Assembly (NCBI GenBank): GCA_017561935.1
Contig: JAFZBE010000067.1
Span: 2,752-66,751, forward strand
DNA length: 64,000 nucleotides
Source of the DNA: Bacteroidales bacterium
GTDB taxonomy: Bacteria > Bacteroidota > Bacteroidia > Bacteroidales > UBA3663
Direction of reading: 5' to 3'
The notes beneath the pieces are model-generated. The model made no database searches and had not been told where the DNA came from. It saw only the letters and a program-made list of their open reading frames with translations. Positions 10,597 to 60,442 of this stretch are shown here, in pieces. The translations under genes and the position numbers were made by a program. How positions within the stretch are numbered: the stretch's first letter is position 1; each line of letters begins with the position of its first letter.

Positions 10597-13572
10597 ATGA
10601 ACATTTCTAAATTGCACCAGCTGGCGCGCAGTCTGCTCCTCATTTGCTTCATCCTGCTGGGATGGAGCGGATGTGTTGTGTCGTATGCCATTACCATCAC
10701 CGGACGCGTAGCTTCGGCAACCGACGACACACCACTGGCCGGCACCACCATCCGTCTTATGACTCTCCCCGACTCGACCTTCGTTGTCGGCACATTTACT
10801 GACCGCAACGGCAACTTCACTCTTCATTCTTCACGACTGGATGGTTTGCTCAAGGAACGCAAGGCGCATCAAAAGGTGCTCGTGCATTTCACGTACATAG
10901 GTTTCCAAGAAACCCTAAAGGTATTTACGCTACATCACCGGCAGAAGTCGTTCGCGCTCGGCGACGTGTTTATGCAGGAAGAACATCGCCTGTTGGGTGA
11001 GACCGTCGTCTCGGCCACCCCTCCCCCAATGGTGATTCGCGAGGACACTATCGAATACTACGCCAGCAGCTACCAACTTGAGCCCGATGCTACGGCCGAA
11101 GACCTCTTGAAACGACTGGCAGGCATCGAAGTGGATGCCAACGGAAGCATTACAGCCCAGGGCGAGACGGTGACGAAAGTATATGTGGATGGGAAGGAAT
11201 TCTTCAGTTCGAATATCCAGGCCACGACCAAGAACCTCACCGCCGACATGTTCGAGTCGGTGCAGGTGGTGGACATGAAGACCGAGGAGAGCCGTCTCAC
11301 AGGTATCGACAACGGCGAACGCGAGAAGGTGATCAACTTCAAGCTGAAGCCGAGGATGAGGCGCGGATATTTCGGCAACGCTGCCGGTGCATGGGGTGAC
11401 GGCTCGGGCATTGACGACCGTTTCGAAACGAAAGGCATGGCGGGCTACTTCAGAGGCAACAACCAGAATGCACTGGTGGCAAATGCGAACAATACGAACA
11501 ACACGGGCTTCGGCGACTTGGGCGAAAAGGTCATGCGCAACTCGACCATGCGCGGCAACCGAAACAGCGGACGACGCGGTGAAGGTCTGAACACCTCGTG
11601 GAGCATGGGCCTGAACCTTAATTACGACAAGGGTAACCGACTGCGCGACGAGAACACTCCCTTCGCCATCGGCGGCGATGTGCTCTATGGCGGGGAGAAA
11701 CAGAGCGAGAAGACATCGACGCACCGCATCAACTATCTGAAGTCGGGCAACACCGGCACCGACACGGAGCAGACAGGCGACAACAAGGGACAGAACGTCC
11801 AACTCGACTTCAAGTACGAAAAGACCTGGGGCAAGGTAGCCGATGGAGAACATCGCCTGCAAATTAGCCCGGAACTGGCTTTCAACAGATCGGAAACCGA
11901 TGAACATTCGACCAGCAGGAACTACCACCTGGATCCGAATGCGGAGGATGAGATCACGGCACTGCCTTCGACCTACATCAGCCAGACCCAACGCTCGAGC
12001 AACATAAAGCAGCAGGGCTTGAGCTATGAACTCGGTCTCACCTACTCTTACGCCAAGAAGATCTCACGAGGGCGACGACGCAGCAGCATCCGTGTCAGCC
12101 TGAATGGACGACACAATGACGGAGACCACTACACCCAATCGTTCACTAGTTACGACAATCTGCTCGTCAACGACCTGAGTCTCCTGAACGACACCACCAT
12201 CAACCAATGGCAGGAAGAACGTTCGAACTCCCTCACCTATCGCATTCGACTTACCCATGTGGAACCCATCAACGAACATCAGTTCATCGAAGTGGGTGCA
12301 ACGGGCAGTTTCACACGCAACACCCAACGCCAGCTCTACCACTTCTGGGACGAAGGTCTCGGACAATATGCCGACTCGATAAACGGCAGGTCGAACATCG
12401 ACTACAGCACCGATTCGCGTACACAGCAAAACAGCTACACCCTGTCGGCCAGCTATCGCCACGTCACAGAGCGTGTCAATAGCTCGATAGGCATTGACCT
12501 GCTGCCCAACACACAGAACTATACCGACTACTACGACCACTCTCGCGATTACAAACGTTCTTACATGAACTTTGCGCCACGGGTGGAGTACCGCTACAAC
12601 TGGAACCGTAGGAAGAACCTGCGCATCACACTGAACGGCAGGACGACACAACCTTCAATCAACCAACTGCAGGCACGCAAGAACCAGACGTCGGCCACCC
12701 ATGTCACATTGGGCAACCAAGACCTTGGGCCGGCTTTCCAAACCAACTTCCAGGCACGCTTCCGTGCCAACAGCCAAGAGACGGGACGTACGCTGGAGGC
12801 TTCGATCAACGCTACTGCACAGTTCAATACCCTGGCCACCAAACGCTGGTACAGCGCCGACCTCCGGACTGACACGACGATGACAGTTAACATCGACGGA
12901 CTGGGTTCGTGGAACGTGCAAAGCGAATTCAGGGGGTCGTTCCCCTTTGCCGACAACCAATGGTATGTAACCACACAGACGACACTGGGCTACCGCGAGA
13001 ACATCGGTTATGCAAACCTGAAGAGCACCGATACACAGGTGAACCATATACACAACGTTACGGCAGACGAACGAACGGGTATCGCCTACCGTAACGACTG
13101 GCTCAACGTGGAGCTACATGGACATTACAGTCTCTCATATAGCGAGGCGACAATCGTCACCTCGGGAAGTTTGGGTACTACACACCAGTTCGGCGTGCGA
13201 AGCAACTTATCAGCCCGTCTGCCGTGGAACCTGAGTTGTTCGACAAGCATCGACTACACGGGACGACGCGGCTATTCGGCTGGCTTGACGCGCAACCAAA
13301 CCATCTGGAACGCACAACTCTCACGTTCGTTCCTGAAACGCAAGAACCTTTCGGCCTTCGTGAAGGTGTTCGACATCCTGCATCAGAAGACAAGCATCAG
13401 GCGCAGCATCAGTGCCACGTCAATCACCGACCGCGAGAGCACAACACTCAGACAATATTTCCTGCTGGGATGCAGTATGAAGTTTAATCAGGGTGCGAGG
13501 GGTTTGAGGGGTTCGAGGGGTTTGAAGGGTTCGAGAGGTCCGAAGGGTTCAAGGGAACACGAACAACATTGA
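10597..13572 (+). CDS. Outer-membrane beta-barrel protein with carboxypeptidase-regulatory-like N-domain (TonB-dependent-receptor-like, OMP_b-brl_3 type) carrying a repeat-derived C-terminal tail
   Basis: 991 aa. N-terminal ITITGRVASATDDTPLAGTTIRL Cna/CarboxypepD_reg-like domain. Plug-like ETVVSATPPP...VYVDGKEFF. Long Asn/Tyr/Thr-rich barrel. A barrel-type end ...LLGCSMKF is followed by 28 extra residues, NQGARGLRGSRGLKGSRGPKGSREHEQH. Confidence 0.85.
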   Translation: MNISKLHQLARSLLLICFILLGWSGCVVSYAITITGRVASATDDTPLAGTTIRLMTLPDSTFVVGTFTDRNGNFTLHSSRLDGLLKERKAHQKVLVHFTYIGFQETLKVFTLHHRQKSFALGDVFMQEEHRLLGETVVSATPPPMVIREDTIEYYASSYQLEPDATAEDLLKRLAGIEVDANGSITAQGETVTKVYVDGKEFFSSNIQATTKNLTADMFESVQVVDMKTEESRLTGIDNGEREKVINFKLKPRMRRGYFGNAAGAWGDGSGIDDRFETKGMAGYFRGNNQNALVANANNTNNTGFGDLGEKVMRNSTMRGNRNSGRRGEGLNTSWSMGLNLNYDKGNRLRDENTPFAIGGDVLYGGEKQSEKTSTHRINYLKSGNTGTDTEQTGDNKGQNVQLDFKYEKTWGKVADGEHRLQISPELAFNRSETDEHSTSRNYHLDPNAEDEITALPSTYISQTQRSSNIKQQGLSYELGLTYSYAKKISRGRRRSSIRVSLNGRHNDGDHYTQSFTSYDNLLVNDLSLLNDTTINQWQEERSNSLTYRIRLTHVEPINEHQFIEVGATGSFTRNTQRQLYHFWDEGLGQYADSINGRSNIDYSTDSRTQQNSYTLSASYRHVTERVNSSIGIDLLPNTQNYTDYYDHSRDYKRSYMNFAPRVEYRYNWNRRKNLRITLNGRTTQPSINQLQARKNQTSATHVTLGNQDLGPAFQTNFQARFRANSQETGRTLEASINATAQFNTLATKRWYSADLRTDTTMTVNIDGLGSWNVQSEFRGSFPFADNQWYVTTQTTLGYRENIGYANLKSTDTQVNHIHNVTADERTGIAYRNDWLNVELHGHYSLSYSEATIVTSGSLGTTHQFGVRSNLSARLPWNLSCSTSIDYTGRRGYSAGLTRNQTIWNAQLSRSFLKRKNLSAFVKVFDILHQKTSIRRSISATSITDRESTTLRQYFLLGCSMKFNQGARGLRGSRGLKGSRGPKGSREHEQH
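13492..13554 (+). repeat. 9-bp-period mini-array, locus A (7 units, GGTTYGARG family)
   Basis: Units: GGTGCGAGG GGTTTGAGG GGTTCGAGG GGTTTGAAG GGTTCGAGA GGTCCGAAG GGTTCAAGG. Translated as seven Gly-X-Y triplets at the 3' end of the OMP gene. Confidence 0.9.
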
Positions 13573-14569: not shown

Positions 14570-15817
14570 TCACTCATATTCGAAGATTCCATTCTCGGTA
14601 TGGAGCGTGACCTTTGCACCCTCCTTTCGTTCCTCGACATGACCAATGATTTGCGCTTCGATGTTGAAGCTGTGTGCGATGTCAATCACCGTCTGGGCAT
14701 GCTCGGCGGGGAGATAAATCTCGAGACGATGTCCCATATTAAATACCTTATACATCTCGGACCAGTCGGTACCCGACTGCTCGTGAATGGTGCGGAACAA
14801 TGGAGGAATGGGGAAAAGATTGTCCTTGATGACATGCAAATCCTTTATGAAGTGGAGCACCTTGGTCTGTGCGCCGCCGGAACAATGAACCATGCCGTGG
14901 AGGGAGGAGGAGAGGTTTGAGGAGTTTGAAAGGTTCGAGGGGTTTGAGGGGTTTGAGGGGTTTGAAAGGTTCGAGAGGTTTGAGCGGAATACGTCAAGGA
15001 TCTTTTTGACAACAGGAGCATAGGTGCGAGTAGGGCTCAGAACAAGCCTGCCGGCATCAAGGGGGCTGCCTTCGACGGCATCGGTGAGTTTCAGCTGTCC
15101 ACTATAGACGAGTTCCTCGGGCACCGCATGATCGTATGACTCGGGATATTTCTGGGCCAAATACTTGCCAAAGACATCATGACGTGCTGAAGTCAAGCCA
15201 TTAGAACCCATCCCTCCGTTGTATTCTTTCTCGTAGGTGGCCTGTCCGTAGCTGGCAAGACCGACAATGACGTCGCCTGCTGCGATGTTGGCATTGTCGA
15301 TCACATCGCTGCGCTTCATACGACATGTAACCGTAGAATCGACGATGATGGTGCGTGCCAAATCACCGATATCGGCCGTCTCGCCACCTGTACCATACAC
15401 ACCTATGCCCATCTCACGCAGTTCGGCCATCAGTTCGTCGTTGCCATTGATGATGGCACTGATCACCTCACCCGGGATGAGCATCTTGTTGCGACCAATG
15501 GTTGACGAGACGAGGATGTTATCGACAGCACCTACGCAGATAAGGTCGTCGATATTCATGATGAGAGAATCCTGGGCGATGCCTTTCCAAACCGAGAGGT
15601 CGCCGGTTTCCTTCCAATACATATAGGCCAATGATGTCTTGGTACCTGCTCCATCAGCATGCATGATGTTGCAATACTCGGGATCTCCACCCAGAATATC
15701 GGGAATGATTTTGCAGAATGCCTGTGGATAGAGGCCCTTGTCGATGTTCTTGATGGCGTTGTGCACATCTTCCTTGCTGGCACTCACGCCGCGCATCATA
15801 TATCTTTGATCTGCCAT
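14570..15817 (-). CDS. purM: Phosphoribosylformylglycinamidine cyclo-ligase (AIR synthase, Bacteroidota long form) with an in-frame repeat insertion
   Basis: MADQRYMMRGVSASKEDVHNAIKNIDKGLYPQAFCKIIPDILGGDPEYCNIMHADGAGTK ... HGMVHCSGGAQTKVLHF. The conserved flanks are interrupted by a 27-aa tract, SNLSNLSNPSNPSNPSNLSNSSNLSSS. Confidence 0.92.
   Translation of the reverse strand: MADQRYMMRGVSASKEDVHNAIKNIDKGLYPQAFCKIIPDILGGDPEYCNIMHADGAGTKTSLAYMYWKETGDLSVWKGIAQDSLIMNIDDLICVGAVDNILVSSTIGRNKMLIPGEVISAIINGNDELMAELREMGIGVYGTGGETADIGDLARTIIVDSTVTCRMKRSDVIDNANIAAGDVIVGLASYGQATYEKEYNGGMGSNGLTSARHDVFGKYLAQKYPESYDHAVPEELVYSGQLKLTDAVEGSPLDAGRLVLSPTRTYAPVVKKILDVFRSNLSNLSNPSNPSNPSNLSNSSNLSSSLHGMVHCSGGAQTKVLHFIKDLHVIKDNLFPIPPLFRTIHEQSGTDWSEMYKVFNMGHRLEIYLPAEHAQTVIDIAHSFNIEAQIIGHVEERKEGAKVTLHTENGIFEYE
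14905..14985 (+). repeat. 9-bp-period mini-array, locus B (about 9 units) inside purM
   Basis: Units: GGTTTGAGG AGTTTGAAA GGTTCGAGG GGTTTGAGG GGTTTGAGG GGTTTGAAA GGTTCGAGA GGTTTGAGC, preceded by a degenerate GGAGGAGAG. The gene reads the C-rich strand, giving (S-N-L/P) repeats. Confidence 0.9.
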
Positions 15818-24358: not shown

Positions 24359-25885
24359 ATGAACGCAACATTGGTATTGGGCGTCATCGTCCTTTACTTC
24401 CTTATGGTTTTCGGTGTAAGTTGGTGGACCACGCGTCGGCGTGACCGCGACACCGAAACCTTCTATCGCGGCGACCGCAAGAGCCCCTGGTGGGTGGTAG
24501 CCATCGCTATGATTGGCACATCCATCTCGGGTGTGACCTACGTGAGTGTGCCCGGCATGGTTGAAGCAAAGCAGATGAGCTACATACAAATGGTCATCGG
24601 CTTTGTTTGTGGTTACTTTGCCGTGGCCTACATCCTGCTCCCCCTTTACTATCGCCTCGGACTCTCGAGCATATACGTGTATCTCGAGCAACGATACGGA
24701 CGGTTCGCCCACAAGACGGGAGCCTCGTTCTTCCTCTTGAGCAAGTATCTGGGTTGCGCCGTCAGGATGTATCTCACTGCTGTGGTTCTGCAACTCGTTC
24801 TCTTCGATCAATTAGGTGTTCCCTTTGGCCTCTCGGTAGCATGCATCATGCTCATCGTCTGGATCTACTCGTTCCGTGGTGGCGTAAAGACACTGGTATG
24901 GACCGACCTTCTGCAGACACTCTGCCTACTATCCGCCATGATAGGATTTGTGATTTGCATCAGTTCAGCGATGGGCCTTGACTTTTCAGGGCTGTATAGC
25001 ACCATCACCGAAAGTCCGATGTCAAGGGTATGGTTCTTCGATGATGCGAATGACACGCGCTACTTCTGGAAACAGTTCCTCGGCGGCATGTTCACCACCA
25101 TCGCCATGACAGGTCTTGACCAGGACATGATGCAGAAGAACCTTTCCTGTAAATCGTTGAAAGAAGCGCAGAAGAACATGGTCTCCTACGGCTTCGGTTT
25201 CCTTCCCGTCAACATCATCTTCCTCTCTCTAGGAATATTATTATATATGTACGCGCGAGAAGTGGGTGTCGATCGAACAGGTGACGAGCTCTTCCCCTAC
25301 CTTGCCACAGGCATCAATCCGACGACGGGCCAACCCTTCCTTCCGCTCATCGTGAGCGTGCTTTTCGTGTTAGGTCTAGTAGCAGCCGCTTTCTCGTCGG
25401 CGGGATCGGCGGTTACCGCTTTGACGACAGCCATCATGGTCGATTTTCTGCGTAAGACGCCCAGCGAGGAAGGTTTGAGGGGTTCGAAGGGTTCGAGAGG
25501 TTCGAAGGGTTTGAGGAGTTCGATAGAGGGCCAACGTTTCTGGGTTCACATCATCAATTCCATCATGATGGGATTCATGATCTACCTGTTCCATCTGCTG
25601 GCTTCCGGCTCAGTCATTAACGCAGTCTATGTGGTAGCATCCTATACATACGGCCCACTCATCGGCCTTTTCTTCTTCGGCATGTTCACGAAGTGCAAGG
25701 TGAAGGATGGATGGTGGATACCGGCCATCTGCATCGCCTCGCCGCTTCTCTGCTTTTTCCTCGATCAGCATTCAGAAGCATGGTTCAATGGATATAAGAT
25801 CGGCTATGAGATGCTGCTAATCAATGGTGCACTGACAGCCCTCGGACTCTTTCTCGCTTCTCTCCACTTCCGCAAGTGTAGTTAA
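24359..25885 (+). CDS. Sodium:solute symporter (SSF) family transporter with an in-frame repeat insertion
   Basis: About 13 hydrophobic helices. SSF-like N-terminus (FYRGDRKSPWWVVAIAMIGTSISGVTYVSVPG). The loop insertion EEGLRGSKGSRGSKGLRSSIEG is encoded by repeat locus C. Confidence 0.88.
   Translation: MNATLVLGVIVLYFLMVFGVSWWTTRRRDRDTETFYRGDRKSPWWVVAIAMIGTSISGVTYVSVPGMVEAKQMSYIQMVIGFVCGYFAVAYILLPLYYRLGLSSIYVYLEQRYGRFAHKTGASFFLLSKYLGCAVRMYLTAVVLQLVLFDQLGVPFGLSVACIMLIVWIYSFRGGVKTLVWTDLLQTLCLLSAMIGFVICISSAMGLDFSGLYSTITESPMSRVWFFDDANDTRYFWKQFLGGMFTTIAMTGLDQDMMQKNLSCKSLKEAQKNMVSYGFGFLPVNIIFLSLGILLYMYAREVGVDRTGDELFPYLATGINPTTGQPFLPLIVSVLFVLGLVAAAFSSAGSAVTALTTAIMVDFLRKTPSEEGLRGSKGSRGSKGLRSSIEGQRFWVHIINSIMMGFMIYLFHLLASGSVINAVYVVASYTYGPLIGLFFFGMFTKCKVKDGWWIPAICIASPLLCFFLDQHSEAWFNGYKIGYEMLLINGALTALGLFLASLHFRKCS
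25472..25525 (+). repeat. 9-bp-period mini-array, locus C (6 units) inside the symporter gene
   Basis: Units: GGTTTGAGG GGTTCGAAG GGTTCGAGA GGTTCGAAG GGTTTGAGG AGTTCGATA. Confidence 0.9.
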
Positions 25886-52857: not shown

Positions 52858-52911
52858 TCTCTGATTTCTCTGAATTCTCCGATTACTTGGAGTTCTCCGA
52901 TTATTCCGAAT
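52858..52911 (+). repeat. 9-bp-period mini-array, locus F (diverged TCTCYGATT type, 6 units) in the dxs-trkA spacer
   Basis: Units: TCTCTGATT TCTCTGAAT TCTCCGATT ACTTGGAGT TCTCCGATT ATTCCGAAT. The array overlaps the dxs stop codon (52901-52903). Confidence 0.7.
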
Positions 52912-54828: not shown

Positions 54829-54891
54829 CTTAACCCCTCTTAACCTTTCGAACCCTTCGAACCTATCGAACTCTTCGAACCCCTCATCCTT
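54829..54891 (-). repeat. 9-bp-period mini-array, locus D (7 units; G-rich strand is the minus strand)
   Basis: Plus strand reads CTTAACCCC TCTTAACCT TTCGAACCC TTCGAACCT ATCGAACTC TTCGAACCC CTCATCCTT. It covers the last 16 codons and the stop of the wbqC-like gene and ends 15 nt before the dxs start. Confidence 0.9.
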
Positions 54892-57959: not shown

Positions 57960-58020
57960 CACGCTATAATTGACATCTTTTTATCATATATAGTCCTAAG
58001 GTCTTGAGTTTTCTTACCCC

Positions 58021-58060
58021 CTCATAACCTCATAATCCAATAACCTCATAACCTCTTTCG
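58021..58060 (+). repeat. 8-bp-period mini-array, locus E (CTCATAAC type, about 5 units) in the DUF2851 leader
   Basis: Units: CTCATAAC CTCATAAT CCAATAAC CTCATAAC CTCTTTCG. The preceding edge TTTTCTTACCCCCTCATAACC matches the edge of locus D (TTTTCTTAACCCCTCTTAACC) at 19 of 21 positions. Confidence 0.75.
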
Positions 58061-58062
58061 TC

Positions 58063-59376
58063 ATGGAGGAACTCATGTATTTCGTTTGGCAGCAGCGTCT
58101 CTTCCTCACTATAGAGACGCCCGACCATCAGCCCCTCGACATTCTCCACCCCGGACTACGCAACTACGATGCCGGACCCGACTTTTTCAACGCAAAGGTC
58201 AAGGAGGATGGCATCGTGTGGGCTGGGAATGTGGAGATGCACGTCAAGGCATCCGACTGGTATCGCCATCATCATCAAGACGATCCCAACTACGATTCGG
58301 TGATACTGCACGTCGTCATGGACCCCGACACCGAAGTTAGGCTACGAAATGGCACATTGGTCAAGACCGTCGTGATGCATATTCCCGATGATCTGATGGA
58401 ACGCTACCGGCAGCTCTGCAGCTGTACGTCTGCCCCTCTCCTACCAGGTCAAGTCCCCAGCTATTCCTGCATCTCCTGCTCAAATCGGCTCGATCAGATA
58501 CCCTCTGTCGTACTTCACGATTGGATTACAGCTCTCTGCACCCAGCGGATGATCGAGAAACTGCAGCGTGTGCGTGACCTCGTTGAAGGACAACTCAAGG
58601 CATGGCCCGAAGCGTTCTATGTGGTGCTAACACGTAGCCTCGGCACGGGTGTCAACAGCGACCAGATGGAACGATTGGCTCGCAGTCTGCCCTACAGTTG
58701 TCTGTTGCATCATAAGGATAACTTTCTGCAGATTCAAGCCCTTCTGTTTGGACAGGCAGGCCTTCTGCAGATGCAGGATGCGGAATCAAAAGAAGCAAAA
58801 GACCAACAGGAATGGCGACTGATGCAACGCGAATACGCTTTTTTGAGGCAGAAATTCAGCCTTTCTCCCCTCAACGGAACTTATTGGAAGATGGGACGTG
58901 TGCGTCCTCCCGCACAGCCTGAAGCCCGTTTACGTGCCTTGGCCAAACTCATTTGGACACATCAGGACCTCTTCGATGAAGTTCTCGAAGCCAACAGCTT
59001 GGAGCAGATGGAAAAGATTTTCAGTGGAAAGGGTATCGGACGGCAAACGGTGCGCAGCCTCATTATCAATGCGGTTGTTCCCCTCCTACTCGCCTATGCC
59101 CAATGGCAAGGCGATGACGAGCGCTGCGAAAAGGCACTCAATCTGCTCGAAGAACTTCCTCCTGAAAGGAATCGATACATCAACCAATGGATTGAGGCAG
59201 GCATCACCGTGAAGTCCGCCATGGACACACAGGCTTTGCTCCATCTCTTCAAGAACTACTGCCAGCCCCACAAATGCTTGCGCTGCCGTATCGGTTGCTG
59301 GCTGCTAAAAAAGGCCGACATATCCCCTTCGAGCGGCGAAAACCCGCTTCAAGTCTCAGATGAGATTCCCTTTTGA
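58063..59376 (+). CDS. DUF2851 family protein
   Basis: MEELMYFVWQQRLFLTIETPDHQPLDILHPGLRNYDAGPDFFNAKVKEDGIVWAGNVEMHVKASDWYRHHH, as in the conserved DUF2851 N-terminus. A C-terminal CxxC (CLRCRIGC) is present. Confidence 0.85.
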   Translation: MEELMYFVWQQRLFLTIETPDHQPLDILHPGLRNYDAGPDFFNAKVKEDGIVWAGNVEMHVKASDWYRHHHQDDPNYDSVILHVVMDPDTEVRLRNGTLVKTVVMHIPDDLMERYRQLCSCTSAPLLPGQVPSYSCISCSNRLDQIPSVVLHDWITALCTQRMIEKLQRVRDLVEGQLKAWPEAFYVVLTRSLGTGVNSDQMERLARSLPYSCLLHHKDNFLQIQALLFGQAGLLQMQDAESKEAKDQQEWRLMQREYAFLRQKFSLSPLNGTYWKMGRVRPPAQPEARLRALAKLIWTHQDLFDEVLEANSLEQMEKIFSGKGIGRQTVRSLIINAVVPLLLAYAQWQGDDERCEKALNLLEELPPERNRYINQWIEAGITVKSAMDTQALLHLFKNYCQPHKCLRCRIGCWLLKKADISPSSGENPLQVSDEIPF

Positions 59377-59806
59377 GGGAAACGTCCAATTTACGATTGA
59401 GAATTGGACACACGCGATTGGAAACGTCCAATTTACGATTGAGAATTGGACACACACGATCGGAAACGTCCAATTTACGATTGAGAATTGGACACACACG
59501 ATCAGAAACGTCCAATTTACGATCGAGAATTGGACGCACGCGATCGGAAACGTCCAATTTACGATTGAGAATTGGACGCATGCGATCGGAAACGTCCAAT
59601 TTACGATTGGGAATTGGACACACGCGATTGGAAACGTCCAATTTACGATTGAGAATTGGACGCATGCGATTGGAAACGCCCAATTTACGATCAGGAATTG
59701 GACGCGCGCAATCGGAAACGTCCATTTTACGATTGAGAATTGGACGCATGCGATTTACGATAGAACATTCCCCTTTCTAAGTGAGCCCTTCGTCCTCGGA
59801 AATTGA
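59360..59806 (+). CDS. Candidate 148-aa protein made of nine 14-residue repeats (GNVQFTIENWTHAI); coding status uncertain
   Basis: ORF MRFPFE(GNVQFTIENWTHAI)x9...YDRTFPFLSEPFVLGN. In this frame, 4 of the 6 unit polymorphisms shared by two or more units are synonymous third-position changes. However, three frames are open across the array, and most variable sites are CpG-context transitions, which confounds the signal. Confidence 0.25.
   Translation: MRFPFEGNVQFTIENWTHAIGNVQFTIENWTHTIGNVQFTIENWTHTIRNVQFTIENWTHAIGNVQFTIENWTHAIGNVQFTIGNWTHAIGNVQFTIENWTHAIGNAQFTIRNWTRAIGNVHFTIENWTHAIYDRTFPFLSEPFVLGN
59379..59756 (+). repeat. Tandem array, 9 x 42 bp; each unit has a 9-bp inverted repeat and an alternating purine-pyrimidine tract
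   Basis: Unit: GAAACGTCCAATTTACGATTGAGAATTGGACRCRYGCGATYG. Unit starts are at 59379, 59421, 59463, 59505, 59547, 59589, 59631, 59673 and 59715. CGTCCAATT and AATTGGACG are reverse complements separated by 10 nt. There are no unique spacers. Confidence 0.95.
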
Positions 59807-59911: not shown

Positions 59912-60442
59912 ATGACCAAAAAAATTGTTTCTATTCAACTTGTCAGACTCTCTGAGGAGCGTACCGTTGCCTTCAAGGAGGAAATGCAAGAAGCTTTTCA
60001 ACATGGTTTCGAGGCATATAACAAAGAACCTGAAGAAACGAATCAGTGGCAAGTCCTGCCTGATGAGGATTTCTATCAGTCGTTGAATGCAGAAGGTGCC
60101 GAAGCCTACGAAGCCGTCAGCGAGGATGGCCAACGAGTAGGCGGTGCCATCATTACCACTAACGACAATATGGGTGAACTTGCATTCCTCTATGTGAAGG
60201 TGGGCGTTCAGAGCAAGGGTATTGGCCAGTCTATCTGGAGATCTATAGAAGCCATGCATCCAGAAATAGAGGTGTGGGAAACCTGCACTCCGTATTTCGA
60301 CCGTCGCAATATCCATTTCTACATCAACCGCTGCGGTTTCCATGCCGTTGAGTTCTTCAACGAGCATCACCCAGACCCCAATATGCCTGAGCAGTTCGAC
60401 CAGGAGGACGGACTATTTAAGTTTGAGAAAAGAATGAAATGA
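59912..60442 (+). CDS. GNAT-family N-acetyltransferase
   Basis: GGAIITTNDNMGELAFLYVKVGVQSKGIGQSIWRSIE (acetyl-CoA-binding Q/RxxGxG/A-type motif). 176 aa. Confidence 0.85.
   Translation: MTKKIVSIQLVRLSEERTVAFKEEMQEAFQHGFEAYNKEPEETNQWQVLPDEDFYQSLNAEGAEAYEAVSEDGQRVGGAIITTNDNMGELAFLYVKVGVQSKGIGQSIWRSIEAMHPEIEVWETCTPYFDRRNIHFYINRCGFHAVEFFNEHHPDPNMPEQFDQEDGLFKFEKRMK

Follow-up and report, generated by a model that had tools for sequence, protein, structure and literature searches.

What is an array of nine 42-bp palindromic units doing directly behind a protein-coding gene of an uncultured rumen bacterium, and what keeps its arms constant? The array lies in a 64,000-nt stretch of a Bacteroidales genome (GCA_017561935.1, contig JAFZBE010000067.1, positions 2,752 to 66,751; hereafter the window), immediately downstream of a gene of the DUF2851 family (Table 1). 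We propose that it is one locus of a lineage-restricted, low-copy, non-coding minisatellite family of palindromic units, similar to repetitive extragenic palindromic (REP) sequences and bacterial interspersed mosaic elements (BIMEs) and, with an architecture of its own, to pneumococcal BOX and mycobacterial MIRU elements, and that the arms are read by a lineage-specific putative protein. We give this reading a probability of about one half. The family is confined to a group of uncultured rumen Bacteroidales; it is itself undescribed, and its general kind is known.

The Array in the Window

An initial annotation, made from the letters alone, had described nine 42-bp units in exact phase without spacers, beginning 2 nt after the DUF2851 stop. 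Tandem Repeats Finder bears this out (59378-59754, period 42, 9.0 copies, 90% matches, 0% indels, score 600), as does the register of the nine units, which is exact from 59379; the stop codon is TGA at 59374-59376, followed by GG and unit 1. Each unit has the form GAAAC-GTCCAATT-TACGATTGAG-AATTGGAC-RCRYGCGATYG, with the arms at unit positions 6-13 and 24-31 and a 10-nt loop between them. The spacer between successive palindromes holds a semi-conserved CGATYG, a second copy of which lies in the loop, 21 bp off, and the lineage-specific GAAAC. With up to 3 mismatches allowed, a 31-mer core matches eight of the nine array units and nothing else in the window (chance expectation 0). The array is not an assembly artefact, because an independent metagenome assembly (L003) holds an identical nine-unit array within 5 kb at 100% identity.

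The anatomy proposed initially was a 9-bp inverted repeat with a 10-nt loop. The 8-bp stem is robust, but the ninth pair, C5-G32, is formed in only five of the nine window units, being replaced by C/A in units 1, 2, 3 and 6. The suggestion that an arm can also pair with the next unit is right as anatomy. A single unit folds as a 9-bp hairpin (-8.7 kcal/mol, z = -2.97), and the whole array folds far above shuffles on both strands (z = -14 and -12). Two stem substitutions reported as uncompensated are real: unit 8 has a T-to-C change in its left arm (CGCCCAATT) and unit 9 has A-to-T at position 11 (GTCCATTT), a change common throughout the family. To take them as weak evidence against selection for the hairpin, however, needs rewording, since the arms are near-invariant family-wide, the pair 5-32 covaries and the arms of a sister family have changed symmetrically (see below). 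The 3' end of the array falls within the CGAT motif (…GCGATTT). An alternating purine-pyrimidine tract is present in the window units, as noted initially, but the spacers of other lineages differ (e.g., CGACACGATTG, GCCGACGATCG, CCGTCCGATTG, GTTTCCGATTG), so that it is not a feature of the family. The further idea of a Z-DNA-prone functional module was dropped, the tract not being conserved beyond lineage A.

Table 1. Features at the array and elsewhere in the window (coordinates of the window).
Feature	Coordinates	Strand	Basis or remark
DUF2851 gene, 437 aa	58063-59376	+	Pfam PF11013, E = 3.5e-108; stop 2 nt before array
Array of 42-bp units, nine units head-to-tail	59379-59756	+	oriented by loop TACGATTGAG; consensus GAAACGTCCAATTTACGATTGAGAATTGGACGCACGCGATCG
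Palindromic core, unit 1	59384-59409	+	example, recurs every 42 bp; arms plus 10-nt loop
Left arm of unit 1, GTCCAATT	59384-59391	+	
Loop of unit 1	59392-59401	+	
Right arm of unit 1, AATTGGAC	59402-59409	+	
Inter-palindrome spacer, 16 nt	59410-59425	+	unit 1 positions 32-42 and unit 2 positions 1-5
Units 8 and 9	59673-59756	+	most degenerate of the array, by unit comparison
Post-array segment	59757-59820	+	kept only in array-bearing L009 and L017; 78-80% identity over 61-68 nt
GNAT acetyltransferase gene	59912-60442	+	156 nt past array
Open reading frame, 166 aa	59249-59749	-	made by the repeat, spurious
Open reading frame, 148 aa	59360-59806	+	made by the repeat, spurious
Open reading frame, 135 aa	59373-59780	+	made by the repeat, spurious
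GGGTTYGAR repeat, 9/18-bp units	13490-13555; 14910-14984; 25471-25523	+	second dispersed repeat
GGGTTYGAR repeat, 9/18-bp units	54842-54882		reverse complement
TCTCCGATT-type 9/18-bp units	52858-52911		between two minus-strand genes
CCTCATAA, 4.5 copies	58020-58055		directly upstream of DUF2851 start, in the dapB/DUF2851 divergent region

Distribution of the Family

The palindrome core was searched in 185,579 species-representative genomes, and a pattern ignoring loop and spacer was run over metagenome contigs. The genome scan gave 14 loci in five metagenome-assembled genomes (MAGs), all from ruminant foregut samples and labelled Bacteroidales or Prevotellaceae, one of which has at least six loci; the metagenome contigs added 51 further loci. 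No match to the unit was found in viral contigs, phage records or plasmid records, and a phage or plasmid origin was set aside on these negatives. As the initial annotation had suspected, no described repeat class is matched: Rfam, the plasmid and phage records and the searchable literature, in which the repeat sequence does not occur, gave nothing. From its sequences the host can be placed only loosely, its TypA sharing about 77% identity with the TypA proteins of Muribaculaceae and Candidatus Limisoma.

At each locus stands a single phased array, which if complete comprises 5-11 units, most commonly 9-10. Its period is 42 bp in every case, lengthened to 84/85 bp by a second palindrome where the two alternate. 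Within each of the 66 arrays the orientation is strictly head-to-tail, and 551 kb of sequence from the clade contained no solitary unit of either palindrome type. By their flanks, the 66 arrays fall into about 11 intergenic sites, conserved between species: the dnaE-typA interval, between the two gene starts (18 loci); upstream of a small HTH_18 gene of 144 aa (site 2, 15 loci), where the array always lies 101-103 nt from the gene and the other flank varies; next to polA, beside a YgjP-like gene (11 loci); upstream of era, in the interval separating it from an S8 peptidase gene whose stop codon the array abuts (10 loci); after DUF2851 (the window and four others); and six rarer sites. Absence from close relatives together with a lack of other copies would, by the initial annotation, have refuted it; in fact related species have an array at the same site, and there are these other sites.

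The gene contexts are tandem, divergent and convergent, and the arrays occur in both orientations; of the co-directional contexts, four have a sense and two an antisense array. At several sites other than that of the window, the array begins 0-43 nt past a stop codon. The neighbours, which include DUF2851, GNAT, DnaE, TypA, PolA, Era and glycoside hydrolases, have no common functional theme. Among the flanking genes examined, no cas, partition (ParA/ParB), REP-associated tyrosine transposase (RAYT/Y1) or other candidate gene adjoins any array. Separately, MAG RGIG8089 (JAFZTS01) contains two different dnaE-typA loci (L010 and L013) from two lineages, so that this bin is a mixture of related organisms.

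Conservation of the Arms

Conservation was computed over 539 units, 377 of them distinct, from the 66 arrays. Both 8-bp arms of GTCCAATT-N10-AATTGGAC are 97-100% conserved, except at position 11 (82%, A-to-T), whereas spacer positions 32-36 are conserved only to 41-59%. The lengths of loop and spacer are constant at 10 and 16 (8-10-8, then 16). Sixty-six distinct units have the A-to-T change at position 11, in every case in the left arm and without compensation; its mirror image is seen once. In the pair counts, the eight core pairs are invariant or merely lose pairing. The flanking pair 5-32, by contrast, covaries (GC 19, CG 15, AU/UA 4, wobble 22, unpaired 31), with a covariation score above 500 of 500 shuffles. 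Of 91 units, 84 have U-G and 5 have U-A or C-G at the pair that closes the loop, 14-23. Between lineages A and B the arms are unchanged, with identities of 83% for dnaE DNA, 79% for the left intergenic flank and 62% for the right flank, the last being the level of shuffled controls. The loop is ACTAAATGG at site 2, and the tetramer at the start of the stem is CGTC, base-paired, only in lineage A, other lineages having GGTC, AGTC or TGTC.

Two related palindromes extend this picture. An outgroup contig (L076:1-153), which ends within the array, carries a sister family about 210 nt upstream of a typA whose product is 89% identical. Its 43-bp units, TCCAACGC-N11-GCGTTGGA-N16, have the same architecture and the same TCCAA...TTGGA core, with the inner stem altered symmetrically on both arms. 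Within the family, a second palindrome type, GCATACCaATCTG...CAGATtGGTATGC, alternates with GTCCAATT units, whose CCAAT...ATTGG core it shares, or borders them, giving the composite periods of 84/85 bp. It occurs in L011, L012, L037 and L040 (e.g., L040:4110-4238) and in the left flanks of the site-3 and site-11 arrays, never alone.

Symmetric arms that are fixed in sequence and spacing, and that change symmetrically when they change, fit base-specific recognition by a protein of either a duplex palindrome or a hairpin. The arm pattern cannot tell the one from the other. We also observed that CGATYG, found family-wide at unit positions 16-21 and 37-42, has the look of a GATC-containing palindrome, CGATCG, in decay. 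Position 20 has T:C:A of 67:38:14 and position 41 of 76:35:8, and top-strand C-to-T is about 7 times commoner than the equivalent bottom-strand change.

Dynamics of the Arrays

The number of units varies among near-identical strains: 6 vs. 9 with flanks 99.8% identical, and 10 vs. 7 with flanks 98.8% identical. In other strain pairs the numbers agree exactly. The spacers evolve in concert. Over 16 positions, mean spacer identity is 12.4 between different sites of the same lineage, 9.1 between the same site in different lineages and 9.4 between unrelated pairs; the spacers thus group by lineage and not by site. MAG RGIG7573, for example, has four arrays of the GAAAC type and a fifth of another subtype.

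The arrays also coincide with breaks in gene order. At three of five well-sampled sites one flank is kept and the other is variable; reciprocal flank swaps between sites were looked for and gave no cross-matches. At the DUF2851 site, homology with array-less relatives (blastn against L069, L070 and L072) ceases exactly at the DUF2851 stop, which marks a synteny breakpoint and leaves no definable insertion boundary. The site is occupied in L009 and L017 by arrays of 10 units each, in a 5-kb region 87-91% identical to the window, and is empty in relatives whose DUF2851 proteins are 84% and 74% identical. Beyond the short post-array segment the window and L009/L017 diverge, and the GNAT gene is not the downstream neighbor in either. 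Arrays are nevertheless retained at orthologous sites across species with 91.5% DnaE protein identity, and one outgroup with 89% identical TypA has none. Together, copy-number change, concerted spacers and breakpoints suggest that arrays undergo slippage or unequal exchange internally and ectopic exchange with one another.

A Model for the Maintenance of the Arrays

In the reading we favor, arrays would grow and shrink by slipped-strand mispairing or unequal exchange and would trade sequence by ectopic recombination or gene conversion; ectopic exchange would also account for arrays at synteny breakpoints. Constancy of the arms would follow from base-by-base reading by a putative lineage-specific protein, whether the palindromes are in duplex form or extruded as hairpins. 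Precedents for the recognition of such repeats are REP sequences with RAYT, IHF and gyrase, and sopC with SopB. Two of the roles listed initially, a protein-binding array and a recombination hotspot, are both partly favored by the data. A local effect may be added in the window. With no terminator intervening behind the DUF2851 stop, transcription should run into the array and make it the 3' untranslated region (UTR) of DUF2851. There, by analogy, nine predicted stem-loops would block 3'-to-5' exonucleases, and they may also disturb termination, since the first stem begins 7 nt past the stop. Such an effect would be a side effect at this locus and not the reason for the existence of the family.

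Several points weigh against this model. No trans-acting candidate was found, no RAYT/Y1 transposase or ParB adjoining any array. The units are unlike REPs in being never solitary and never alternating, and in occupying only about 6-11 loci per genome. Arm invariance could stem in part from homogenization rather than selection, and the loci were themselves caught by a pattern that required intact arms in at least 1-2 units. Repeats can collapse in short-read assemblies, the source of the unit counts. Lastly, the lasting retention of arrays despite fast change in copy number hints at a real cellular function beyond what the model provides.

Alternative Explanations

The alternative that survives best, though we think it unlikely, is a platform for binding to duplex DNA, comparable to the sopC centromere or to iterons. 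The palindrome would be the operator of a putative dimeric protein, successive sites, 42 bp or four helical turns apart, would all face the same side of the DNA, and about ten arrays would nucleate nucleoprotein complexes, with roles in chromosome organization, ParB-like clamp loading, insulation or regional regulation. Invariant half-sites at fixed 10- and 16-bp spacings around a variable centre are the classic pattern of a dimeric site, and the half-sites of the sister family changed symmetrically. Units occur only in arrays of at least five, their placement is independent of transcription context and orientation, and the arrays persist at orthologous sites in spite of the instability typical of a variable-number tandem repeat (VNTR). 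The fixed distance of the site-2 array from the HTH_18 gene, beside a variable other flank, also favors such a platform. The nearest geometry is that of sopC, whose 12 direct repeats of 43 bp each include an inverted repeat of 16 bp to which SopB binds (PMC3177203), and this resemblance keeps the reading in contention. However, no partition or DNA-binding gene consistently adjoins the arrays, and plasmid records hold no match. The half-sites are 18 bp apart from centre to centre, which is not a whole number of helical turns, and the 43-bp period of the sister family shows that exact helical phasing is not kept. The frequent A-to-T change hits one arm only, and a constant period is expected from tandem duplication alone.

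An element acting at the RNA level is improbable in our estimate. It might be a 3' UTR stabilizer or attenuator, or a small RNA that sponges protein in the manner of CsrB through about 18 ACGAUUG copies in loops and linkers. The position of the array 2 nt past a stop without an intervening terminator, and of other arrays 0-43 nt past stops, would suit this. So would the folding of both strands far above shuffles, the predominance of U-G at the loop-closing pair 14-23 and the fact, by sequence reasoning, that CGAUUG is self-complementary only through G-U pairs on the + strand. REP, BOX and enterobacterial repetitive intergenic consensus (ERIC) elements alter the fate of co-transcribed mRNAs (PMC3049150). 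Yet placement in divergent promoter regions and in both orientations (four sense, two antisense) leaves no shared transcript context or strand. The stems are invariant rather than covarying, the loops, where a sponge motif should be kept, are variable (ACTAAATGG at site 2), and any array of inverted repeats would give strong z-scores trivially. A known RNA family was rejected, as Rfam 15 has nothing at the gathering threshold and, at permissive settings, only one plant miRNA model (24.5 bits vs. a gathering score of 245 bits). The terminator stack suggested initially was discarded as well: the stems are AT-rich and without a T-run, the + strand of the array has no terminator-like site, and some arrays lie between divergent gene starts. 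A scan for sigma-70 promoters and terminators gave background levels, the sigma-70 model not being appropriate for Bacteroidota promoters.

Slightly harder still to credit is a functionless minisatellite, amplified by slippage, spread by ectopic recombination and kept uniform by gene conversion, with no protein to read it. Unstable copy number, concerted evolution and location at synteny breakpoints are all expected of one, as is the patchy presence seen in the empty DUF2851 sites and in one outgroup. Other prokaryotes have reported non-coding satellite families that lack an assigned function (PMC6749651). What counts against it is that conversion hardly explains, without selection, 16 arm positions near-invariant through lineages and subfamilies beside spacers conserved to 41-59%, that unstable arrays have held their sites between species whose DnaE proteins diverge by 8.5%, and that the arm changes of the sister family are symmetric.

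A bolder proposal, which we regard as a long shot, is that the arrays are the cis-sites of an unrecognized chromosomal system, in which a dedicated putative protein binds cooperatively to about ten phased, sopC-like arrays at fixed positions on the chromosome and co-evolves with them. Such a system might serve chromosome organization, clamp loading or insulation. Co-evolution of protein and arrays would explain why arrays change jointly throughout a lineage and why the arms of the sister family differ symmetrically.

Mobile and CRISPR-related origins are very improbable. MITEs (miniature inverted-repeat transposons) with an internal minisatellite have Bacteroidales precedents in BrickBuilt and MITE464/PgRS (PMC4596501), and the regular spacing of the palindromes superficially resembles that of CRISPR, from which a degenerate array might derive. 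A MITE was rejected because the flanks of the 11 sites share no leader, tail, terminal inverted repeats or target-site duplications, only 10-16-nt matches at chance level, and because the sites are mostly orthologous and bear no sign of recent insertion. CRISPR, whose repeats are parted by unique spacers of about 26-72 bp, was rejected because the 16-nt "spacers" are near-identical within an array, no cas genes are adjacent and no viral match was found.

A repeat-protein gene or an extension of DUF2851, with 14 residues per unit, is effectively refuted. The length of the unit is a multiple of 3, the three overlapping frames pointed out initially are truly open in the window, and the 166-aa one is annotated as a gene in the public contig. 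However, every frame is broken by stops in one array or another (seven of them in the +2 frame of L005 and of L007, and some in all three + frames of L009, at the same site as the window), conservation is mirror-symmetric about the palindrome rather than codon-periodic, and arrays lie on either strand relative to their neighbors. Pfam gave only sub-threshold, repeat-driven noise on these frames, and a protein-database search with the translated repeat, a repetitive query that was probably down-weighted, gave one weak match. The frames are by-products of a 42-bp unit that happens to be stop-free, and the array is non-coding. In two TypA clusters (P0122 and P0131) the proteins are 100-155 residues overlong; these models are probably extended upstream through the dnaE-typA array.

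The DUF2851 Locus and Other Repeats in the Window

Other repeats follow DUF2851 in relatives. In the array-less L070 (3815-3930) and L071, a 14-bp GC-rich hairpin, ACAATCATCCCCCG...CGGGGGATGATTGT, comes after the DUF2851 stop, and about four octamers, GAGAAAAT, come next. In L069 (4090-4305) and L074 (3172-3419), the DUF2851 orthologue (protein identity 86% and 63%) is followed after 290-440 nt by a 42/84-bp satellite unrelated to the window family; the units of these two satellites form no significant hairpin (z = +1.06 and +0.68). With the window there are thus three unrelated satellites of 42-bp period after DUF2851 in three lineages. This may reflect conserved position with turnover of sequence, or it may be coincidence. 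It suggests the wider idea that 41-43-bp intergenic satellites recur in Bacteroidales, with position kept and sequence turned over. The CACGAT common to unrelated 42-bp satellites was given no weight, one shared 6-mer being estimated as roughly an even bet by chance.

The DUF2851 protein itself has confident AlphaFold models (pLDDT, the predicted local distance difference test, 86.6 and 92.1), with an alpha/beta domain at the N terminus and a long helical domain after it. Its invariant residues are G38-P39-D40, E58-x-H60 and C400/C405/C408/C412. No significant sequence or fold match was found among solved structures (PDB), which leaves a guess that the protein is nuclease-like without support.

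The window contains further short repeats (Table 1). The GGGTTYGAR copies lie within or at the end of long open reading frames on both strands and would therefore be read in different frames; they may be an intergenic or gene-end satellite, or short peptide repeats. A similar AACCTTTCGAACC tract stands beside the start of obg in L015.

Significance

Should the model we favor hold, a defined palindromic-repeat family would be added to Bacteroidota, where such elements have barely been described. The arrays matter in practice as well. They break short-read assemblies, many contigs ending in them, and they create spurious genes such as the 166-aa frame and the N-terminally extended TypA models. 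They also mark rearrangement junctions and offer VNTR markers for tracking strains in rumen metagenomes. If a dedicated binding protein exists, the family would be a tractable model for the co-evolution of a protein with dispersed sites, and might reveal a chromosome-organizing system in a major order of gut bacteria.

Comparison with Known Repeat Systems

Within the Bacteroidales, the BrickBuilt and MITE464/PgRS repeats of Porphyromonas gingivalis are likewise intergenic, spacer-less tandem repeats; their units are of 23 and 41 nt, respectively, and they are species-restricted, with 10-20 copies per genome (PMC4596501). The MITEs that contain them have a leader and a tail, terminal inverted repeats resembling those of IS5 and, in some cases, duplicated target sites, whereas the window family has no such termini and no similarity to them in sequence.

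The mycobacterial interspersed repetitive units (MIRUs), used as VNTRs, are also direct tandem repeats, of 40-100 bp, at positionally conserved intergenic loci (41 in M. tuberculosis H37Rv) with strain-polymorphic copy number (PMC5056196). MIRUs, however, have "no obvious palindromic sequences" and a single orientation to transcription (PMC5056196). The window family has a strong palindrome and occurs in both orientations.

The boxB module of pneumococcal BOX elements is about 45 bp long. BOX resembles the window family in its variable number of tandem boxB modules, intergenic location, strong folding, strain-variable copies and open reading frames called as genes on both strands (PMC3049150). 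BOX has conserved terminal boxA and boxC modules, more than 100 copies and enrichment between convergent genes. The window family, in contrast, has no terminal modules, few and conserved sites and no bias of context, and the second palindrome borders some arrays only.

The palindromic units of enterobacteria were reportedly found to be species-specific by Gilson and colleagues in the 1980s. REP/BIME elements resemble the window family in being short intergenic palindromes in regular clusters, in their mosaic of palindrome types and lineage-specific sequence at conserved positions, and in the effects to be expected on mRNA ends and DNA-binding proteins (PMC2817692, PMC3733652). The stem of lineage A even begins with CGTC. 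CGTC REPs, however, are defined by an unpaired tag, a 4-5-nt loop and a 3-nt tail (PMC3733652), while in the window family the loop is 10 nt and CGTC is paired, and absent in other lineages; membership of that class was therefore rejected. Head-to-tail dimers are "negligible" among REPs (PMC3733652), which alternate or form head-to-head dimers, unlike the solely head-to-tail units here. REPs number tens to thousands per genome, vs. about 6-11 loci that never hold a solitary unit. In sum, the window family shares with REPs the extragenic stem-loop palindrome but not their abundance, their solitary units, the alternation of orientation or an unpaired tag (GTAG or CGTC). No RAYT (Y1 transposase) was found among the genes flanking arrays, to which the search was limited.

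The F-plasmid sopC differs from the window family in its setting, since the latter is chromosomal and multi-locus, with no adjoining parA/parB-type genes and no plasmid match. It differs also in the palindrome, a compact 16-bp inverted repeat in sopC as against 8-bp arms 10 bp apart. In geometry, and in geometry only, the two are near-identical: the arrays described here are 5-11 direct repeats of 42 bp (43 bp in L076), each with an inverted repeat.

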